Sequence record: MK327934.1
Direction: 5' to 3' (one strand)
Length of the DNA stretch: 64,000 nucleotides
Source: Escherichia phage vB_EcoM_G2469
The notes under the pieces were generated by a model that was not told the origin of the DNA, made no database searches, and was given only the letters and a program-made list of their open reading frames with translations. Within the stretch, counting starts at the first letter, position 1; each line of letters opens with the position of its first letter. The translations under genes were made by a program, and so were the position numbers. This document shows positions 2,520 to 30,402 of this stretch, piece after piece.

Positions 2520-3620
2520 TTACGCTGTGAAGATTTTATCCCACATCGCAACAACTGCATCTCGGTTATACTTCTTCCATACTGCTTCAGCACGTTTAAC
2601 TCGAGCTTCGTATGTGTCAGTGAATTCTAATACAGCTTTTGTGTAAAGCGCAACTACTTCTTTCTTAGGAGTAGAGGAATCAATTTCTACACGCACAGTA
2701 TCTGGGTCGTATTCGAATGTCGCATGAGGATAATCCTTAAAAACTAACTGAATTACAGGGACACCTTTAGAGATGGCTTCAATAGAACTATTCTCTACCG
2801 TACCTGTGTCAGGACACGTATTAATAAGTGCTTTAGCTATTTTAAGGCGTTCCATGATTTCACTGTGTGGAGCATCAATAATAACAGGATATTTAGCTGG
2901 TGGCGCCCATTTGCTTGGACAGTATCCTGCACCATTTTCGCCTAGTGCTTTAATCGCTTCAAGAGCAACATCAGTACGACGCATTTTAGTGTCATAACGT
3001 TGTGCACTAATAATCAGATCCGTCGCCGGAAGAACTTCAGGTTTATCATTCAAACAAATAACCGGATAATCTTCGGCTTCAAACAACGGATTTGCTCGCC
3101 AATAATCATAATCAATTTTGTCAGTCAGACCTGAAGTCATATAACAATATTTGCGTTCAAATTCACGGAAGGCTTTAGTAGGAGCATAACTCTTACCACC
3201 GTTCTTATGAATTTGAATAGTCTGGTCCCAAATTTGAACAATGCCACGAGATACCGGTTCAAATGGTGTTGCCATAAAATTCTTATGAACTTTAGAGAGA
3301 CCTGCGTCTTTAATTGCCTGAACGGTTAGTTTAGTCGGTTCCATAGTAACAACAAAATCGTATTCATGGATGCCGGCTAGTTCAACAATCTTACGAGCCA
3401 TAGTATAACTCATACCTAGACTGAATTTTGTCAGATGACCAACAGGATGATGATTAACTTTCCAGTCACCAAATGTGTCATTATCAAAACCGATATAATC
3501 AATATCAGCACCGATGGACACAAGATATTTCAACACATTTAAATGTACTGCTTCAAGACCACCTTGTACACGGTCAGGATTAAATGGGACTGCACGAGAT
3601 GGGATAAACATAACTTTCAT
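2520..3620 (-). CDS. glycosyltransferase, GT-B/GT4-like (candidate DNA hmC sugar transferase)
   Basis: 366 aa; N-terminus MKVMFIPSRAVPFNPDRVQGGLE is typical of GT-B retaining glycosyltransferases; sits where T4 has gene 60/mobA. Confidence 0.7.
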   Translation of the reverse strand: MKVMFIPSRAVPFNPDRVQGGLEAVHLNVLKYLVSIGADIDYIGFDNDTFGDWKVNHHPVGHLTKFSLGMSYTMARKIVELAGIHEYDFVVTMEPTKLTVQAIKDAGLSKVHKNFMATPFEPVSRGIVQIWDQTIQIHKNGGKSYAPTKAFREFERKYCYMTSGLTDKIDYDYWRANPLFEAEDYPVICLNDKPEVLPATDLIISAQRYDTKMRRTDVALEAIKALGENGAGYCPSKWAPPAKYPVIIDAPHSEIMERLKIAKALINTCPDTGTVENSSIEAISKGVPVIQLVFKDYPHATFEYDPDTVRVEIDSSTPKKEVVALYTKAVLEFTDTYEARVKRAEAVWKKYNRDAVVAMWDKIFTA

Positions 3621-15257: not shown

Positions 15258-15779
15258 TTAGTAACCATTATCCTGACGTTCAAAGTTGTGTTGGTTTTTC
15301 AAGTAGTAAAGTTTAAAGATTTCTTCAGCGGAAAGACCCAGACCTTGGAACATATTCAGAACAAAGTGGAGGATATCAATCATTTCAAATTTAATTTCAA
15401 GCTGGTCTTCAGGAGACAGTTCATCGATACGACGATTTCGATATTCAGCATGTTGTGCTTTCCATGGCTTCCATACAGAGCTAGCGGCTTTTTCACCATT
15501 GCTCATACCACCAAGTGAAGTCAGCAGTTCACGGAATTCATCATCAATATAATCTTTCTGATTACGCAGCCAATCAACAACATCACCGGCAGTAGCCAAT
15601 TCATCAGGATGTTTGTTATGTTCAGGCTTGTCATTTGCCAGACGAACCTGTAAAGATTTCTGCATATCAAGCATTACCTGCAGTGGGTCTTTATCTTCGT
15701 GAATCAGAGCATTAAAATAAGCTTCTTCTGCTTTATCAACACCAGAAATAAGTTGTGAACATTCGTTAAAGTGTGCCAT
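15258..15779 (-). CDS. 56: dCTPase/dUTPase, MazG-like
   Basis: 173 aa; size and position of T4 gp56. Confidence 0.8.
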   Translation of the reverse strand: MAHFNECSQLISGVDKAEEAYFNALIHEDKDPLQVMLDMQKSLQVRLANDKPEHNKHPDELATAGDVVDWLRNQKDYIDDEFRELLTSLGGMSNGEKAASSVWKPWKAQHAEYRNRRIDELSPEDQLEIKFEMIDILHFVLNMFQGLGLSAEEIFKLYYLKNQHNFERQDNGY

Positions 15780-18820: not shown

Positions 18821-19069
18821 TTATTCTTTTTCGCGAATAATAATTACTTGTTGAGGCTGCTGAGCAGATTTCTTTTCGGCAACGATAGACCAAATTAAAG
18901 TTCCAATCCAACCAACCATCGTCCAGTTAAAGAGTAAAGATACAAAGAAGATTGCTGTTGTGCTTTTTGTGCCACGAATAAGTGCGATTACCCAAGGCAA
19001 CATGTAAATGATGATTGAACCAATACCTGCGATTAAAACTGCTACTGAACTAGCTACGAATAATTCCAT
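18821..19069 (-). CDS. small membrane protein
   Basis: 82 aa, two hydrophobic segments. Confidence 0.5.
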   Translation of the reverse strand: MELFVASSVAVLIAGIGSIIIYMLPWVIALIRGTKSTTAIFFVSLLFNWTMVGWIGTLIWSIVAEKKSAQQPQQVIIIREKE

Positions 19070-23853: not shown

Positions 23854-24402
23854 TTAACGAGCCCATTTGATGATTTCTGTAATCAAACCATTACGTTCGC
23901 TTGCATTAAATCCTATAACTTTGTTAGCACCATCATGATTAAGTAATTGATATGTTTGGATTTTGTTATGAATTGCAAACTCTTCAAAATGTGAAATGAC
24001 TGTATTAAAACCGAATGAAGACAAAGTAATAAGGTCGTCTTCAAAACTTTCAGTCATTTCGTTACGTGTTAAAATAATTGTGAACACATCATGGTTTTGG
24101 CAAAGACGAACATAATCCTGTTCATAAACGTCAAGAACCGAGTCAGCATCTTGTCGAATACGTCCATAAACCCAGTTACTAATATATCCACGGTCTAACA
24201 GATAAATCTTAGTAGGGTCTAAATAATTCAACATCGTTTCGAAACAGCCAACTTCATTTCGAGACTTAACATCGAAACGCCCATCAACTGTTCGTTTAGG
24301 GAAATCAATCTTTACATATCTTTCACTAATTTCCATTATGTCATTAATGAAAGTTGTTTTACCAGCATTATCTGGGCCATCTACTAAAATAATTTTAGCC
24401 AT
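23854..24402 (-). CDS. P-loop nucleoside/nucleotide kinase-like protein
   Basis: 182 aa; Walker A ILVDGPDNAGKTT near N-terminus. Confidence 0.6.
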   Translation of the reverse strand: MAKIILVDGPDNAGKTTFINDIMEISERYVKIDFPKRTVDGRFDVKSRNEVGCFETMLNYLDPTKIYLLDRGYISNWVYGRIRQDADSVLDVYEQDYVRLCQNHDVFTIILTRNEMTESFEDDLITLSSFGFNTVISHFEEFAIHNKIQTYQLLNHDGANKVIGFNASERNGLITEIIKWAR

Positions 24403-24403
24403 T

Positions 24404-25303
24404 TTATTCCTCGATTACGACATCTTCATATTTAGGTATATTATACGGCGAAGAAATTAAAGCATTAAAGTAGATGAACTCACCAAGACCTGGATGGAAT
24501 ACTTCTTCAGGATTTTCGAAATATTGAATTTTCGGACGCCCTTTAAGAATTTGATAGTACTCTGTTTTAGTTGGTTTAAAAATTCGAATCAGCGCTTCTT
24601 CAGGATACTTATTTCTGTCGAAGCTATTATTTGGATCGGTTATATAAAGCGGTTGGCCTAATTGAATTGCACATTCAACCACTTGTTCAAAACGATAGCA
24701 CGGGTCACTAATTCGAAATGGATGAAAAATACCATCTAGATAAATAGGAGCCAAATCACCTACAAGACGCTGCATGATGGAAGGACGTATAACTTTCTGC
24801 GTTACGATAATCTTATTACCATCTGCACCAGCGTTAACCAGCACTTCTTTTTGACGTTCATTCAACACAGTAGTTTGAAGTGAACGATTAACCGACAACA
24901 TATCAGTTTTTAAGAATTCATCAATATAAAAACGTGGTTTATTAGGGTCTGCAGTGATATTGAAATTGAATTCCACATCAAAAGCGCCGTCATATCCAGT
25001 GATATCTGTGATTAGAAAATCACAGTCATAATAAGCAATTAATGAATCAACCACAAATTCATTTTCAGACCAGAAATATTTACGAGTGTTATACGCGTTA
25101 TCTTTATACCATAATGGAACAAACTTAAATTCTGGAAAAAGACGTTCGCATTCTTTAATATCAGATGCATTACGTGGATATGTAATCACATCACCCGGAT
25201 TAGCACGGTGCAAATGAAGTTGGAAGTTGCCATCCTTAAGGATAGCATACTGTCCAGTTTCATAAGACCGCATACTCAAAATAGGTACGCGGAAAATAGC
25301 CAT
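24404..25303 (-). CDS. hypothetical protein at the beta-gt position (possible second sugar transferase)
   Basis: 299 aa, no resemblance to T4 beta-gt seen; TAATG overlap with gene 42. Confidence 0.5.
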   Translation of the reverse strand: MAIFRVPILSMRSYETGQYAILKDGNFQLHLHRANPGDVITYPRNASDIKECERLFPEFKFVPLWYKDNAYNTRKYFWSENEFVVDSLIAYYDCDFLITDITGYDGAFDVEFNFNITADPNKPRFYIDEFLKTDMLSVNRSLQTTVLNERQKEVLVNAGADGNKIIVTQKVIRPSIMQRLVGDLAPIYLDGIFHPFRISDPCYRFEQVVECAIQLGQPLYITDPNNSFDRNKYPEEALIRIFKPTKTEYYQILKGRPKIQYFENPEEVFHPGLGEFIYFNALISSPYNIPKYEDVVIEE

Positions 25304-26019
25304 TAGTCAAGGAATCCTTTAACATAATCAAAATCACGTTCAAACACATGGGCACTTACCATGGTATGAGTATAATCACCAACTTCTACACCGCATTCGT
25401 TAGCGATATAATGAAGTAATTTTCCTTGGAGATAAAAATCCAACTGCATAACAACAGCACAGTTCTGAGAACGCATATGACAGTGGGTATAAAGCTTACC
25501 ATCACGAATATAATAAGTCACTGAGTCAGTACATGGATATTCAAGCGTTTCGTCTGAATCAAGCAAAGCCTGATCAGAACTTTCTAGAATTTGGAACACA
25601 ACTCTTCGGGAGTTAGGCTTCTCTTTAAGTTCTTTTAGAAGAGCTGGTAATTGGGCCGCAATGCGAGGACCATAGAAAGTGTTGAAGTTCGCCGGCAAAA
25701 CATCTGATTTTGGTTTAGAAATAAATTTAGCGACATTAGGATATGCCTTAAACGCTTCTTCTGCGTTGGTACCACCAGAAATCATAAACTTCCAGAAGTC
25801 TTCGGCATATTCATAAGAGATGCGGTTAATACGTGGGTCGGTCATTTTGAATGATGATGGAGTGTCAACAACTACTGTCATAGACCCAATTTCATTACAA
25901 CGTCCAATACGAGAATCAGTTACGAATTCCGGGTTTTCTAAAATTTCACGATTGACTGTTTTAAATGCGGTTTGAAAATCTGCGGCTTTGATATATTTCA
26001 TTGTGTTATGTTTTCCCAT
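25303..26019 (-). CDS. 42: dCMP hydroxymethylase (thymidylate-synthase fold)
   Basis: 238 aa; T4 gp42-like. Confidence 0.9.
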   Translation of the reverse strand: MGKHNTMKYIKAADFQTAFKTVNREILENPEFVTDSRIGRCNEIGSMTVVVDTPSSFKMTDPRINRISYEYAEDFWKFMISGGTNAEEAFKAYPNVAKFISKPKSDVLPANFNTFYGPRIAAQLPALLKELKEKPNSRRVVFQILESSDQALLDSDETLEYPCTDSVTYYIRDGKLYTHCHMRSQNCAVVMQLDFYLQGKLLHYIANECGVEVGDYTHTMVSAHVFERDFDYVKGFLD

Positions 26020-26061
26020 GTTTACCTCAATACAATTTATTATATACTCAATTCGTAAAGC

Positions 26062-26301
26062 TTATTTGAATTTCTTGACAATGTTGATATAACGTAAAGC
26101 TTCAGCATCGATACTTCCAAGAACACTATGAAGAAATGCATCAGCGTAGTATTCCAATTGAACAGGTTCTTTAATCACTTTAGCCGCTTTAGTTTCAAAC
26201 AGGCCCATCAGGGCCTTTTTAAGAATTTGTTCATTAGTGTTCAGTTTAATAGTCAAAATCTCTTCATTAAGTTGGTGGTTAAAAGTTTTTCTAGAAATCA
26301 T
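26062..26301 (-). CDS. small hypothetical protein
   Basis: 79-aa ORF, ATG start, 4-nt overlap with next gene. Confidence 0.45.
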   Translation of the reverse strand: MISRKTFNHQLNEEILTIKLNTNEQILKKALMGLFETKAAKVIKEPVQLEYYADAFLHSVLGSIDAEALRYINIVKKFK

Positions 26302-27467
26302 TCCGGGTACCTCAAAGCGTCATCAGAGTTAGTTATATCAATAATAGATATAGAGTTTTCTGCTAACCCGTTTTTAGATAATTGACGTTTATAATATCTT
26401 TCACAATATGTACACGTCGTCCCGCAGATTTCATTAGCACAATCGAAATCCGGATGTCTGAACCACCTTTTTTCTAAAAAGCCATCTAACAAAGAGGTTT
26501 CAATATTTACTGTATGTGAAAACTCGGTCTCATTTTCAAGAGTGAAAATAGTCTCTAAAGGCTTCCACAGTTCTAACAAATTACCTTCAAACTTTTCAGA
26601 AGCGTATGCTTCAAGAACTTTCAAAATGTAGTCTGTGCTACCTGTACGTCCTGAAACTTTGAATTGAGTGATACCAATATCATTATAAAGTTTCAAATCT
26701 TGAGGACGAACAAAACGAGTTCTCAGCCAGTTAAATGGGTCTGTATCACGAGCTTTAATGCAGTGTTGCATTGGATATCCATTTAAGGATTTAGCATCAT
26801 CAGCGGTAACATCAGTACTATGGAAAATATAGCAAGAGTCACGATAGCTACAATGTGTTGTATACCCTTTACCAGCATTAGAACAGAACTCATTTACAAG
26901 AACTTCAAATATTATATTGTTCTTATTGCAAAACTCTGCTGCACGCTTCAGGAAAGAAACTGAACGGTTCTTATGAATTCCGCAGCAGACCTTTTTGATA
27001 TTATACTGGTCATGCAAGTATTTGATTTGAGTTACAGCATCGACATGTAGAATTGTTGAAACTTCAATCTCAATGTCTTTATTGACTTCACGAACAATTT
27101 CCATAACAACAGGGTTAGCGATAGTAATACGCCATACGCCTATTGACCAAAGATACTGAACATAATCCTGAATAGCTTTCTTCTTCCACTCAACTAGTTC
27201 TCTTTTTGAACCAGGATTTATCGTGTTGAGTGTATAGTTAAAGCAAATACCTAATTCGTTACAACGTTTAACGTAGTCTTCTAACATCTTTTTGTCAACG
27301 TCAGGAAGCCTAAAATCAGGTCTGGCTGCTACAAAAGCCATTTCTCTTGTAGAGCCATATACTTCGTTTATCAAGCTATTAGGATAGGTTTTATTGAGCT
27401 CTACGATTTTATCAAGAAGAGCTAAATCAAAATTCGTTCCGATTTTAAAAGTATTCATTTTTTGCAT
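26298..27467 (-). CDS. hypothetical enzyme with C-terminal Cys cluster
   Basis: 389 aa; C-terminal C-x4-C-x3-C-x2-C (CANEICGTTCTYC) contains CxxxCxxC; second CSxxxxxxxxHCSxxxxC stretch. Confidence 0.55.
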   Translation of the reverse strand: MQKMNTFKIGTNFDLALLDKIVELNKTYPNSLINEVYGSTREMAFVAARPDFRLPDVDKKMLEDYVKRCNELGICFNYTLNTINPGSKRELVEWKKKAIQDYVQYLWSIGVWRITIANPVVMEIVREVNKDIEIEVSTILHVDAVTQIKYLHDQYNIKKVCCGIHKNRSVSFLKRAAEFCNKNNIIFEVLVNEFCSNAGKGYTTHCSYRDSCYIFHSTDVTADDAKSLNGYPMQHCIKARDTDPFNWLRTRFVRPQDLKLYNDIGITQFKVSGRTGSTDYILKVLEAYASEKFEGNLLELWKPLETIFTLENETEFSHTVNIETSLLDGFLEKRWFRHPDFDCANEICGTTCTYCERYYKRQLSKNGLAENSISIIDITNSDDALRYPE

Positions 27468-27513
27468 CTCGCGTTAATTGATGCGATGGTTTTTGCAGGT
27501 CTTACTTAAATTA

Positions 27514-27915
27514 TTATAGATTCGGTTTATACGATTTAAATGTTTCGAATTCGCCTTTATTCATAAGAGCTTTGAATTCGTCAGGACGCATAGCTTTGTC
27601 GTCGATAATCCAATCATATACTGGTTTATGTGTTAGCAAATTATGGTACTTCAAGCCAATGTTTGCCAAGTTCTGAATCAGACTTGGGAGAATGTCAATT
27701 GCTATACGACCAGGACCTACTGACTTCATACCGCGAGCAGTGTAAAGCGTTATGGTATGCCCTGCATCATACAGGGCATTAATGGCAGACACCATTTCGA
27801 CGTCTGGTTTGAAGTTCACGTAATCACGATTGTTATTCCACTCTGTTATACAATCATCGACATCAAAACAAAGATTAAGCATGTTTTCTACACGGTGCAT
27901 TAGATTCGTTCCCAT
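27514..27915 (-). CDS. HAD-superfamily phosphatase (GmhB/KdsC-like)
   Basis: 133 aa; motif I FDVDDCIT near N-terminus; alternative start at 27900 in TAATG overlap. Confidence 0.6.
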   Translation of the reverse strand: MGTNLMHRVENMLNLCFDVDDCITEWNNNRDYVNFKPDVEMVSAINALYDAGHTITLYTARGMKSVGPGRIAIDILPSLIQNLANIGLKYHNLLTHKPVYDWIIDDKAMRPDEFKALMNKGEFETFKSYKPNL

Positions 27916-29585
27916 TGATGAGTGATATCGCCACCGATTGGACGATAGGAAACACCAGTTTCTTTATCAGTTAGTACCCATTTACCAGGATTTTTTGTAA
28001 TCAGAGTAGCCGTTACAGGTTCTGCTACGTCATAACTAATAGAGCCGTCCTGAAGTACACGGCCCATGTTACGTAATTGCTTAGTCAGAAGTTCCATACC
28101 TTTATAATATGCGGCTACCGCTTTAAGTGGATTATTCTTGAAATAACCACCTAATGCAATCCAGATAATTGCCACAGCCAAATGATGATATTCATTAAAC
28201 GAACTCAGCTTTCCATATTTGTAAACTAATGGATTGATGTTAATAGTCACATTACAAGTTGTTTCATCAATAGTAAACTGTCCCCAGGTCGGATTAGCAT
28301 TGAATTCATCATAACCTGAAACAGCATAAAGCACTTTAGCTTCATCATACAATTTTGGCCCGTAAATCTTGGTTTCACCAAAATATCCACGAGGGTCGAT
28401 AAATTTGACTTCGCCGTTATCAGTAATCATAGTATTACTGAAGTTCGGGTCACCATGAATAACAGAGTACTGTCCCTGAGAACGGTTATGATAACGAATA
28501 AGGTGTTCTAAAGCTTGTTTCAGCATTGGCTTCAGACGTCCAATCTTAGTGTAGTTCACATGTGTGATTTTACCAAATGAATCAATCAATGGTTGAATGC
28601 TTTCACAACGATCAATAACTTTCGTATAGAATTCTTTAGTGAAATCACGACGAACAGTTTCAGGACTTACAAAATAAGTGTCTGTGCTGAATTTCAGTGC
28701 ATCTAAAATTGCATCAACAATTTGTGGACGAGCAAGACTTGATTTGGATTTAATATATTCAAATGCCGGCTTACCTTTAATGCGTTCCATTTCAAAGTTA
28801 TTTTCATTAACAGAAACTAACTGAGGAACTGAATCTGATTTCACTTTAAGATACCATGAAATCTCATCTTTCTGAAGAGCTCGACCTTGTTCAGTTAATG
28901 CGAATTTAGTTACAGTTTCTTCACCAATTTCAACTGCATTAAAACTACGATTAAGTTCACGAACTTCATGAGCCTTTTCAAGTTTAGGCATATCACCAAG
29001 GTCGATGATATTCATAAGCTCTGATTTATTGAATGCGCCGCTGTAAAGGAATTCTACGAAATCACGTCCTTTGCAGTATTCATGAATTTCCTCATCGGTA
29101 GAACCCATGTAGAATTCCCAGTCTTTGAACTGGTAAATTCCCACAACATTACCACCTGTTGAACCTACGTTAGTGATATTTTCACCATCGAAATTATATC
29201 GACATTCGTCACCCTTAACATAGATTGCGTTAACATTCCAAGACCATGAACCAAAATCAGGAATAATATCACACCAGTTAACAATTACGTTATGGCCGTC
29301 TAAATCTTTGTGTAATTTAGCAAGAGCATAAGCAGAACCATACGCTTCATCGACTGTACGAATAGTCACATTGAACCCTTCTTGCTCACAATAAGCTCGA
29401 ACAGTTTCAGCAAATTTTGAATGAACTACTACAATAATTTCATCTGCGCCAAGGTCAGAATAAATTGTATACAAATTGCTCAGAATAGTGTCTTGTTTAT
29501 AGTTAACAAGCACCTTAGGAATATGGTGAGTAATTGGATATAAACGAGTTGCCAATCCAGCACCAAGAATAACAGCTTTTTTCAT
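27900..29585 (-). CDS. bifunctional sugar-phosphate nucleotidyltransferase / sugar kinase
   Basis: 561 aa; N-terminal MKKAVILGAGLATRL nucleotidyltransferase signature; C-terminal HGDPNFSN...IDPRG kinase motif. Confidence 0.75.
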   Translation of the reverse strand: MKKAVILGAGLATRLYPITHHIPKVLVNYKQDTILSNLYTIYSDLGADEIIVVVHSKFAETVRAYCEQEGFNVTIRTVDEAYGSAYALAKLHKDLDGHNVIVNWCDIIPDFGSWSWNVNAIYVKGDECRYNFDGENITNVGSTGGNVVGIYQFKDWEFYMGSTDEEIHEYCKGRDFVEFLYSGAFNKSELMNIIDLGDMPKLEKAHEVRELNRSFNAVEIGEETVTKFALTEQGRALQKDEISWYLKVKSDSVPQLVSVNENNFEMERIKGKPAFEYIKSKSSLARPQIVDAILDALKFSTDTYFVSPETVRRDFTKEFYTKVIDRCESIQPLIDSFGKITHVNYTKIGRLKPMLKQALEHLIRYHNRSQGQYSVIHGDPNFSNTMITDNGEVKFIDPRGYFGETKIYGPKLYDEAKVLYAVSGYDEFNANPTWGQFTIDETTCNVTININPLVYKYGKLSSFNEYHHLAVAIIWIALGGYFKNNPLKAVAAYYKGMELLTKQLRNMGRVLQDGSISYDVAEPVTATLITKNPGKWVLTDKETGVSYRPIGGDITHQWERI

Positions 29586-29626
29586 GTTGTGGTCCTCATT
29601 GGTAAGTAGGAGTATTGTACACTATT

Positions 29627-29770
29627 CTAGTTAAAGCATTCATACTTTGCTTGTAGTCCAATCATAATCCATCCAATTACAAGTGTTGGAATCATTACCG
29701 GAGCCGTTAAGCTCCAGTAGATAGTCATGACAAGCATCAATAGTAAAAGTCCTATTGTTATTGCTTTCAT
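29627..29770 (-). CDS. small membrane protein (47 aa), not in ORF track
   Basis: MKAITIGLLLLMLVMTIYW...; ATG overlaps upstream stop as ATGA. Confidence 0.35.
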   Translation of the reverse strand: MKAITIGLLLLMLVMTIYWSLTAPVMIPTLVIGWIMIGLQAKYECFN

Positions 29771-30402
29771 TGTTCGCCTCGTAACATGGCACCTAGTGCA
29801 CCGCCTGGATGGAACTTAAGGAAATCATTAGAGGTAAATCCACGTTCAGACGAAAGGTTGATAGCAAACGTATCGATAAGCGCTAACAACAATGTAGTGG
29901 ACATTGTCGGAGCTAAAGAGTTCTCGTCAACTTCTACCGCGATACCAGTACAGAACGTATAATCAAAAAGAGCTTCGTATTCTTGTGGAATGTCAGGGTT
30001 ACAATGTAACAGAATCTGTTTAACCTGAGGACGAATCATACGAAGATGTTTAGCAACACCTATCATTTCTTCAGTCTTACCAGAACGACTAATATGAATC
30101 AACACGTCATTAGGTGCAATAAATCCTGCGTCACCATGAGAATAATGCCCAGTGTTCAAATACATGCTAGGAATACCTAGTGAAGCAAATGTCTCGGAAG
30201 CTTTAGTTGCGATATTAGCATTCTTACCAACACCTGTAATAATTACCCGGCTTTCATAATTACTAAGTCCAGGGCGTCGAAGAGTTTCTAGAATAGCATT
30301 ATAACGAGCAGGGTTTTGACTAATTACTTTGGCCATAGCGGCCAAAGAAGAAGCTTGTTTTATGATTGCGTCAATAGCGATAGTAATAGGAGTAGTTTTC
30401 AT
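29767..30402 (-). CDS. SIS-domain sugar-phosphate isomerase (GmhA/KdsD-like)
   Basis: 211 aa; SIS motifs VGKNANIA and HISRSGKTEE. Confidence 0.75.
   Translation of the reverse strand: MKTTPITIAIDAIIKQASSLAAMAKVISQNPARYNAILETLRRPGLSNYESRVIITGVGKNANIATKASETFASLGIPSMYLNTGHYSHGDAGFIAPNDVLIHISRSGKTEEMIGVAKHLRMIRPQVKQILLHCNPDIPQEYEALFDYTFCTGIAVEVDENSLAPTMSTTLLLALIDTFAINLSSERGFTSNDFLKFHPGGALGAMLRGEQ

Follow-up and report, generated by a model that had tools for sequence, protein, structure and literature searches.

The DNA of phage RB69 contains mono- and di-arabinosylated 5-hydroxycytosine (5hoC), in which the sugar is ether-linked directly to C5 of the base, as analyzed by nuclear magnetic resonance and liquid chromatography-mass spectrometry (PMC13326640). 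The DNA of phage NP, a Mosigvirus, carries 5-ara-dC and 5-ara-ara-dC according to high-performance liquid chromatography with mass spectrometry, and the assignment of the modified base as 5-hydroxymethylcytosine (hmC) has been called erroneous (PMC13390438). The corresponding genes are those for gp45 to gp55 in RB69 and for the Afh pathway in phage HY126 (Thomas et al. 2018; Mahler et al. 2025; He et al. 2026; Lee et al. 2026). Here we report on a stretch of 64,000 nucleotides (64 kb) from Escherichia phage vB_EcoM_G2469 (MK327934.1), referred to in the following as the window, and on a cluster of six open reading frames (ORFs) located in it at positions 26062-30402. This region is very probably the sugar-donor half of a gene cluster for the hypermodification of DNA with arabinosyl-5hoC (ara-5hoC) in an RB69-type Mosigvirus (RB69 ORF045c-055c together with ORF003c). 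The homologue of RB69 gp50, which is conserved more strongly than any other protein of the cluster, has no role in the literature that we searched. It is a member of the Peptidase_U32 family, and we lean towards viewing it as a prephenate-dependent, O2-independent iron-sulfur (Fe-S) enzyme that would hydroxylate cytosine at C5 (as dCMP, as dCTP or within DNA) and would represent a phage-specific branch of this family.

The sugar-nucleotide pathway as such is already known, having been put forward in 2018 and established in 2025-2026. Thomas et al. (2018, PMC6024577) reported that RB69 lacks both alpha- and beta-glucosyltransferase, proposed ORF055c and ORF53_52c as genes for the formation of UDP-arabinose, and showed that the split between 052 and 053 in the RB69 GenBank entry is a sequencing error. 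As far as the work of He et al. (2026) is relayed in the text of Lee et al. (2026, PMC13326640), ribulose-5-phosphate (Ru5P) is converted via arabinofuranose-5-phosphate (Araf5P), the 1,5-bisphosphate (Araf1,5P2) and the 1-phosphate (Araf1P) to UDP-arabinofuranose (UDP-Araf). In this scheme, the kinase domain of HY126 AfhE converts Araf5P into Araf1,5P2, the Mg-dependent phosphatase AfhF converts the bisphosphate into Araf1P, and the transferase domain of AfhE forms UDP-Araf from Araf1P and UTP. Table 1 of the same paper differs in that it gives an older order, with the phosphatase acting on Araf5P to yield free arabinose and the kinase acting afterwards; we have adopted the kinase-first order of He et al. 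as given in the text of PMC13326640. RB69 gp48 makes 5-hydroxy-dCMP (5hodCMP) in a flavin-dependent reaction in which 18O from 18O2 is incorporated (PMC13326640).

The characterized members of the U32 family function in O2-independent hydroxylation that depends on Fe-S clusters and on prephenate. RlhA forms 5-hydroxycytidine 2501 of 23S rRNA (PMC5727448), TrhP forms 5-hydroxyuridine 34 (ho5U34) in tRNA in parallel to the O2-dependent TrhO (PMC6599085), and UbiU/UbiV take the place of the flavin monooxygenases UbiI/H/F when oxygen is absent and use prephenate as the oxygen donor (PMC10990095). Prephenate is an established requirement or oxygen donor of U32 hydroxylases (PMC5727448, PMC6599085, PMC10990095).

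The arabinosylation gene cluster of the window

The window corresponds to the left end of the genome of an RB69-type T-even phage of the genus Mosigvirus; from rIIA onward it follows the RB69 gene order exactly, and its proteins share 93.7-100% identity with their RB69 counterparts. The six ORFs at 26062-30402 (RB69 ORF055c, 054c, 053c+052c, 051c, 050c and 049c) share the same orientation on the minus strand, some of them overlap (29767-29770, 27900-27915, 26298-26301), and they are flanked by the DNA polymerase gene on one side and by a thymidylate synthase (TS) homologue on the other. The tight packing and conservation of this cluster do not represent a chance pattern, because 154 phage records contain the 4.3-kb stretch with at least 95% identity and every ORF in it matches a PHROG family. 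The best DNA matches of this stretch are Mosigviruses (97.7-99.8% identity), and phage NP is 97.9% identical to the window over it. An earlier sequence-only reading of this DNA had described five genes in place of the imm gene of T4. All ORFs that it described are present on the minus strand at the coordinates given there, and in T4, genes 43 and 42 are indeed separated by nothing but imm and imm.1; a sixth ORF at 29627-29770, encoding 47 amino acids, had been missed. The imm gene of the window sits elsewhere (18824-19069).

The sugar-side enzymes are closely similar to those of RB69. The isomerase (211 amino acids; 98.1% identity to RB69ORF055c) matches the Pfam SIS domain with 39.8 bits and, in PDB sequence searches, the entries 3etn, 5uqi and 2xhz (arabinose-5-phosphate isomerase) with E-values of 1e-18 to 7e-25; its conversion of ribulose-5-phosphate to arabinose-5-phosphate has been proposed previously (PMC6024577, PMC13326640). 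The AfhE homologue (561 amino acids) contains a Pfam NTP_transferase domain at residues 3-99, with the motif GAGLATRLYPIT at residue 8, and weak APH/fructosamine-kinase-type Pfam matches at residues 344-409, with the catalytic motif HGDxxxxN (HGDPNFSN) at residue 377. Overall, Pfam and NCBIfam relate it to NTP_transferase/GlmU/RmlA/MurU proteins (the NCBIfam matches to MurU are weak) and to APH-like kinases; its PDB match is 1jyk. The HAD-type phosphatase (133 amino acids) carries the DxD motif FDVDDC at residues 17-22, and its residues 5-133 are 100% identical to PDB entry 9iqw_A (E-value 8e-88), with 1xpj as a further PDB match (E-value 5e-10). The bifunctional enzyme had been thought to lack a characterized phage counterpart; one exists in HY126 AfhE, as does one for the phosphatase in AfhF (PDB 9iqw). 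The HY126 GenBank record contains no Afh gene names.

The AfhE homologue shares 98.9% identity with RB69 ORF052c+053c, a gene that the RB69 record splits in two, as it does with ORF046c/047c. Both genes are single, intact ORFs in the window (24404-25303, 299 amino acids; 27900-29585, 561 amino acids), in independent support of the published attribution of the RB69 splits to Sanger sequencing errors.

The following course of events can be envisioned from pathway steps shown or proposed for RB69, HY126 and NP, which we transfer to the window on the basis of near-identity. The SIS enzyme would divert host ribulose-5-phosphate to arabinose-5-phosphate, the C-terminal kinase domain of the 561-amino-acid enzyme would phosphorylate this sugar at C1, the HAD phosphatase would remove the 5-phosphate, and the N-terminal nucleotidyltransferase domain of the 561-amino-acid enzyme would form UDP-arabinofuranose. 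On the base side, the TS homologue would convert dCMP to 5-hydroxy-dCMP with flavin and O2, and kinases would raise the product to the 5-hydroxy triphosphate; gp56 dCTPase would strip dCTP from the nucleotide pool, so that the polymerase would incorporate modified C alone. Transferases of the gp46:47 and ORF003c types would then attach one or two arabinoses. Nothing that we found speaks against the sugar pathway, although the biochemistry stems from near-identical phages and not from this isolate. A route built of isomerase, kinase, phosphatase and nucleotidyltransferase to an activated sugar for modified cytosine in DNA had been suggested by the sequence-only reading and agrees with the published pathway; its guess at the sugar (a pentose such as arabinose) was correct, and the logic of the GmhA/HldE/GmhB type that it perceived matches the order from Ru5P to UDP-Araf in so far as PMC13326640 relays it.

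With respect to the base, the same reading had to be corrected, since it took hmC for the acceptor and the neighboring gene for one encoding a dCMP hydroxymethylase. The TS homologue matches PDB entries 9iqc/9ir2 (E-value 3e-160). In alignments with E. coli ThyA and T4 gp42, it possesses Asn at ThyA position 169, where both of the other proteins have Asp, and the D169N exchange is the diagnostic signature of 5hodCMP synthases (PMC13326640). In the numbering of E. coli ThyA, C146 is kept, and the residues D177 and E143 are found. The enzyme is a 5hodCMP synthase, and the acceptor is 5hoC with an ether link to the sugar (PMC13326640, PMC13390438). We consider it very improbable that an activated pentose is instead attached to hmC made by a gene-42-type dCMP hydroxymethylase. 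Such a view can draw on the arabinose found in RB69 DNA, a modification named ara-hmC by Thomas et al. (2018, PMC6024577), and on the dCMP-specifying N177D exchange in the TS homologue; however, the sugar in RB69 is joined by a C5-O ether to 5-hydroxycytosine, the oxygen of the 5hodCMP made by gp48 comes from O2 (PMC13326640), the correction published with the analysis of phage NP speaks against hmC (PMC13390438), and the window protein, with N169, is unlike T4 gp42, to which it is only 25% identical; for RB69, the hmC view stands refuted by the published structural analysis.

The sequence-only reading had also recognized neither an alpha- nor a beta-glucosyltransferase. A T4 beta-gt homologue was not detected in the window by tblastn (E-value of 0.01 or below; alpha-gt lay outside this search), but two arabinosyltransferases that are not of the T4 type are encoded at 24404-25303 and 2520-3620. 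The former, the gp46:47 homologue, has no Pfam match, and its assignment derives from structural matches (Table 1 of PMC13326640). The latter is 99.2% identical to RB69ORF003c and has identical coordinates; its role as a transferase has been proposed (PMC6024577, PMC13326640). The gp45 homologue is 98.9% identical to RB69ORF045c, and both gp45 and the gp56 dCTPase are listed in Table 1 of PMC13326640. Because the base-side enzymes and the arabinosyltransferases adjoin the flagged region or lie outside of it, the functional unit is 23854-30402 together with 2520-3620 and the dCTPase gene at 15261-15779 (Table 1). That these genes are instead auxiliary metabolic genes contributing to an envelope precursor of the host (a sugar of the Kdo, capsule or lipopolysaccharide type) unrelated to DNA is hardly credible: the best NCBIfam names are those of KpsF/GutQ and KdsD for the isomerase and of a capsule biosynthesis phosphatase (TIGR01689) for the HAD protein, and 9iqw was deposited as a "capsule biosynthesis protein", but all these family matches fall under their cut-offs, the genes are set among those for DNA polymerase, 5hodCMP synthase and DNA arabinosyltransferases, they co-occur in at least 11 Straboviridae genera, and DNA is arabinosylated in vitro with UDP-Araf as the donor.

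When compared with the RB69 gp45-gp55 and HY126 Afh systems, the window has the same genes in the same order and is a member of this group; it differs in nothing material, apart from gp46:47 and gp52:53 being single ORFs. The ADP-heptose pathway (GmhA/HldE/GmhB) shares with it the SIS isomerase, an anomeric kinase that yields a bisphosphate, a HAD phosphatase that acts on the distal phosphate, a nucleotidyltransferase, and the fusion of kinase and transferase. By domain family (Pfam, NCBIfam), the window enzymes nevertheless stand outside that pathway: the isomerase is of the KpsF/GutQ (arabinose-5-phosphate) type and not of the GmhA type, and in contrast to HldE the kinase is APH/choline-kinase-like instead of ribokinase-like and the transferase RmlA/MurU-like instead of cytidylyltransferase-like. 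Moreover, the phage domains are arranged in the order transferase-kinase, and a pentofuranose, a UDP carrier and a DNA acceptor are used. According to Table 1 of Lee et al. (PMC13326640), AfhE is MurU-like (4y7t) in its N-terminal domain and similar to APH-type sugar kinases in its C-terminal domain.

In the recycling of N-acetylmuramic acid, AmgK and MurU form a pair of anomeric sugar kinase and uridylyltransferase that we take to be the counterpart of the two AfhE domains. In the window, these domains are fused, act on arabinose phosphate, and have a phosphatase step between them. The glucosyl-hmC system of T4 (gp42, alpha-gt, beta-gt, gp56, gp1) occupies the same slot between gene 43 and uvsX, and it likewise relies on a TS homologue that makes a modified dCMP, on the depletion of dCTP and on glycosylation at the level of DNA. 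In contrast to T4, the base in the window is 5-hydroxy and not 5-hydroxymethyl (D169N, with flavin/O2 in place of folate), the phage makes its own sugar donor and does not draw on the UDP-glucose of the host, and the transferases are unrelated to beta-gt by tblastn.

Table 1. Genes of the modification cluster and associated genes in the window.
Feature	Position	Strand	Basis
Second arabinosyltransferase, RB69 ORF003c/gp3, outside the flagged region	2520..3620	-	366 amino acids; RB69 identity
gp56 dCTPase	15261..15779	-	tblastn with RB69 gp56: 97% identity over 173 amino acids
Thymidylate-kinase-like nucleotide kinase, RB69 gp45	23854..24402	-	phrog_761 (thymidylate kinase)
Base-proximal DNA arabinosyltransferase, RB69 gp46:47	24404..25303	-	phrog_3891; position of RB69 ORF046c+047c
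Thymidylate-synthase homologue, 5-hydroxy-dCMP synthase (flavin/O2-dependent), RB69 gp48	25303..26019	-	Pfam Thymidylat_synt, 9iqc/9ir2, D169N
79-amino-acid ORF, RB69 ORF049c	26062..26301	-	no Pfam or NCBIfam match; chorismate-mutase slot of other genera
Peptidase-U32-family Fe-S protein, RB69 gp50	26298..27467	-	Pfam Peptidase_U32, fold, invariant Cys
HAD-type phosphatase, AfhF type, RB69 gp51	27514..27915	-	PDB 9iqw identity, DxD motif
Bifunctional nucleotidyltransferase/kinase, AfhE type, RB69 gp52:53	27900..29585	-	Pfam, motifs, RB69 identity
47-amino-acid hydrophobic peptide, RB69 ORF054c	29627..29770	-	phrog_3610 (unknown function)
D-arabinose-5-phosphate isomerase, SIS domain, RB69 gp55	29767..30402	-	Pfam SIS, PDB matches, RB69 identity

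Sequence, fold and conservation of the U32 protein

The homologue of RB69 gp50 (389 amino acids) matches Pfam Peptidase_U32 with 42.2 bits against a cut-off of 22.4. Its AlphaFold2 model has a pLDDT of 92.5, and the closest PDB fold is that of the U32 protein Mk0906 (5d88), followed by generic TIM barrels; a search by sequence in the PDB gave no match. The sequence-only reading had described this protein by its Cys cluster and placed it in the sugar pathway. No published role was found for it, in agreement with that reading; its family can now be named, and it probably belongs to the base-hydroxylation side of the pathway, not to the sugar side. Ten Cys residues are invariant in an alignment of 54 family members that extends down to 47% identity: C195, C206, C212 and C236 in the core, a C-terminal set (C343-x4-C348-x3-C352-x2-C355), and C161 and C180. 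When aligned by hhalign with E. coli RlhA, residues E193, C206 and C212 fall on E161, C169 and C176; we used this register, as a MAFFT alignment with the E. coli paralogues misplaced the Cys motif. The formation of ho5C2501 by RlhA requires C169 and C176 and depends almost as strongly on E161 (PMC5727448). Of the four E. coli paralogues, RlhA gives the best profile match (E-value 1.2e-5), followed by TrhP (1.7e-3), UbiU (6.8e-3) and UbiV (0.17).

The phage protein thus shares with RlhA, TrhP and UbiU/UbiV the U32 domain, the equivalents of RlhA E161/C169/C176 and additional C-terminal Cys residues, and its orthologues in other phages are genomically coupled to enzymes of prephenate supply. It differs from the E. 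coli proteins in forming a phage-only subfamily with less than 25% identity to them and without DUF3656, and its presumed substrate is a deoxynucleotide or DNA instead of RNA or a quinone.

In all 221 phage records that possess the gene, the U32 protein is at least 82% identical, while AfhE in the same genomes ranges between 42 and 73%. Its nonsynonymous divergence (pN, 0.085-0.16) is the lowest in the cluster, and its synonymous divergence (pS, 0.73-0.82) is as saturated as in the neighboring genes. Because the lowest pN coincides with a saturated pS, the gene is, as judged from these comparisons, under strong long-term purifying selection. Recent horizontal transfer as the cause of the high conservation was ruled out by the synonymous sites, which are saturated like those of the neighbors. 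In the searched literature, which did not cover the primary papers of He et al. (2026) and Mahler et al. (2025), we found nothing that ties U32 proteins to the modification of phage DNA.

Candidate function of the U32 protein

Sequence, selection and gene neighborhood form the basis on which we favor the reading of gp50 as a cytosine C5-hydroxylase. In the Straboviridae, it would be the anaerobic counterpart of the flavin/O2-dependent 5hodCMP synthase and would supply the 5-hydroxy acceptor without oxygen, for instance in the gut. In phages with DnaE-type polymerases and in jumbo phages, which lack a TS-type enzyme near the module, it may be the sole hydroxylase and act together with a glycosyltransferase (GT), a kinase and the enzymes for UDP-arabinose; the oxygen donor would be supplied by a chorismate mutase or DAHP synthase of the phage. 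The envisioned arrangement resembles the pairs TrhO/TrhP and UbiI,H,F/UbiU,V, as gp50 coexists with an O2/flavin enzyme and both are predicted to make the same product.

The gene neighborhoods on which this view draws recur in several unrelated phage lineages. Among 15 loci of Straboviridae in IMG/VR, 13 have a gene for an AroQ chorismate mutase directly beside U32, and the mutase is present in 56 phage records; in Shewanella phage Thanatos-2 and in the genera Winkler-, Kanagawa-, Teguna- and Bragavirus, it exceeds the cut-off of Pfam CM_2. The genes for U32 and the mutase are placed differently within the Thanatos-2 cluster but remain paired, which implies that the two genes move together. 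Outside of the Straboviridae, U32 homologues with 45-58% identity are restricted to phage-like contigs that encode DnaE-type polymerases (one contig is 466 kb in size), in the setting of nucleotide-metabolism and replication modules. In two thirds of these loci (22 of 33), a full-length GT of the gp46:47 type (BLASTP E-values 2e-13, 3e-14, 4e-10) lies at most 5 kb from U32; in nine of the 22 it is within about 130 nucleotides, with overlapping reading frames in several, and on unrelated phage contigs the gp46:47 homologue is directly upstream of U32. A gp45-like kinase is often located just upstream, homologues of the SIS isomerase and of AfhE occur in at least 10 of the 33 loci, and a DAHP synthase gene adjoins U32 in several. 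Three viral loci encode a fused DAHP-synthase::chorismate-mutase protein and have the order GT - SIS - AfhE - kinase - DAHPS::CM - HAD - U32. In the 33 loci, no TS of the 5hodCMP-synthase type was found within up to 10 kb to either side of U32; the only TS present is an ordinary ThyA with D169 and N177. U32 could not be a mere accessory of gp48 in phages that have no such TS near it. Among named phage records, U32 is confined to phages of Enterobacterales and Shewanella, and it is present in none of the 57 AfhE-containing records of phages of Acinetobacter, a strict aerobe.

Several points weigh against a hydroxylase function. In Table 1 of Lee et al., gp50 is labeled "sugar or heterocycle reductase", with no discussion in the text (PMC13326640), and no U32 protein has so far been reconstituted in vitro as a hydroxylase (PMC10990095). 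In aerobic E. coli, gp48 alone suffices for the formation of 5hoC (PMC13326640). Mosigviruses and phage Marfa have no chorismate mutase gene beside U32; a search with hidden Markov models detected no chorismate mutase in the window, and tblastn detected none in any Mosigvirus record, so that prephenate would have to come from PheA/TyrA of the host. The check for a TS near U32 was confined to metagenomic phages and to at most 10 kb on either side. Finally, Dhakaviruses of E. coli possess the arabinosylation pathway but not U32, which makes the fit with the lifestyle of the host imperfect.

The competing explanations have less support, chiefly because U32 also occurs in the absence of a gp48 homologue and always in contexts of DNA metabolism. 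An unlikely one is that the protein serves as a reductase acting on a sugar or heterocycle, or as an Fe-S protein that passes electrons to the 5hodCMP synthase and so re-reduces its flavin. Besides the label in Table 1 of PMC13326640, for which the text of that paper gives no argument, the position of the U32 gene one or two genes away from gp48 in the Straboviridae and the proposal that the Fe-S clusters of U32 proteins mediate electron transfer (PMC10990095) are in its favor. Yet no TS homologue is near U32 in 32 of the 33 non-Straboviridae loci, the exception being the ordinary ThyA, and the recurrent neighborhood of chorismate mutase and DAHP synthase is left unexplained.

It is quite improbable that the DNA-modification setting is incidental and that the U32 protein hydroxylates RNA, for example U34 of host or phage tRNA or C2501 of 23S rRNA. 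The nucleic-acid substrates known for the family are RNAs only (RlhA, TrhP), and RlhA is the best match in E. coli; the phage protein, however, is about 23% identical and lacks the DUF3656/C-terminal region of RlhA, and in several unrelated lineages its gene is linked to genes for DNA glycosyltransferase, nucleotide kinase, dUTPase/dCMP deaminase and DNA polymerase, not to tRNA genes. A collagenase-like peptidase, as the database names and membership in Pfam Peptidase_U32 have it, is barely conceivable, given that the characterized proteins RlhA, TrhP and UbiU/V act in hydroxylation, that a protease mechanism was never established for U32 (PMC5727448, PMC10990095), and that the genomic context is one of nucleotide metabolism.

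Should gp50 indeed be a cytosine hydroxylase, the U32 hydroxylases would gain their first DNA-directed substrate, and a third pair of aerobic and anaerobic enzymes for one and the same hydroxylation would join TrhO/TrhP and UbiI,H,F/UbiU,V. This function would also explain how gut phages maintain an O2-requiring anti-restriction modification in anoxic hosts, and a compact enzyme of 389 amino acids might make the long-sought prephenate-dependent hydroxylation in vitro tractable. In addition, glycosylated 5-hydroxypyrimidine DNA would be predicted for many uncultivated phages that lack the D169N TS marker now in use.

The neighborhoods of U32 in metagenomic phages hold further variations. On a 61-kb phage contig (L017:7777-16179), a GT of the gp46:47 type and a Gly_transf_sug GT precede U32, which is followed by a gene resembling TET-associated glycosyltransferases, a dUTPase/DCD gene and a gene for UDP-galactopyranose mutase. 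This gene set suggests, by analogy with Rhizobium phage RL38J1, that an uncultivated phage decorates a 5-hydroxypyrimidine with a hexofuranosyl group (galactofuranosyl, Galf). In several contigs of phages with DnaE-type polymerases, a radical-SAM/SPASM gene is located just upstream of U32 between the gp45-like kinase and the gp46:47-like GT genes (L020:7980-9011, L021:7972-9000, L011:1-249). In jumbo phages and phages with DnaE-type polymerases, U32 is also found next to or near genes for dCMP deaminase, for polymerases fused to uracil-DNA glycosylase (UDG) and, once, for ThyX (L011:7447-8004, L012:7504-7929, L022:8850-10977). It is because of dCMP deaminase, the UDG-fused polymerase and ThyX near U32 that we see a possibility that some members of the family hydroxylate dUMP instead of dCMP.

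Small reading frames, regulatory scans and insertions

The 79-amino-acid ORF has no Pfam or NCBIfam match and encodes the protein of the cluster that is least conserved with respect to RB69 (93.7%). Its counterpart in HY126 (L023:5661-5783) is reduced to 40 amino acids by two 1-nucleotide insertions. The ORF is probably dispensable, because it is truncated in a phage that makes the full modification, unless the insertions in HY126 represent sequencing errors. A degenerate chorismate mutase was considered for it and rejected, as hhalign gave a probability of 0.1%, the BLASTP E-values were 0.15 and 7, and the ORF belongs to no Pfam or NCBIfam family. The 47-amino-acid peptide has two predicted hydrophobic segments; its ORF is positioned between those of the isomerase and the AfhE homologue and overlaps the stop codon of the isomerase gene, and the Winklervirus Virsaitis27 has an equally long ORF in this position. 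Neither this ORF (gp54) nor gp49 has a role in the published pathway scheme (PMC13326640).

Scans for promoters and terminators between 23500 and 30800 revealed no excess over shuffled sequence. In the phages Virsaitis27 (L001:5352-5990) and phiR1-RT (L005:2852-3490), which represent two genera, a homing endonuclease gene of the Seg type is inserted between the genes for the HAD phosphatase and the U32 protein, and in other phage records homing endonucleases adjoin AfhE. The modification cluster appears to be a hotspot for the insertion of homing endonucleases.

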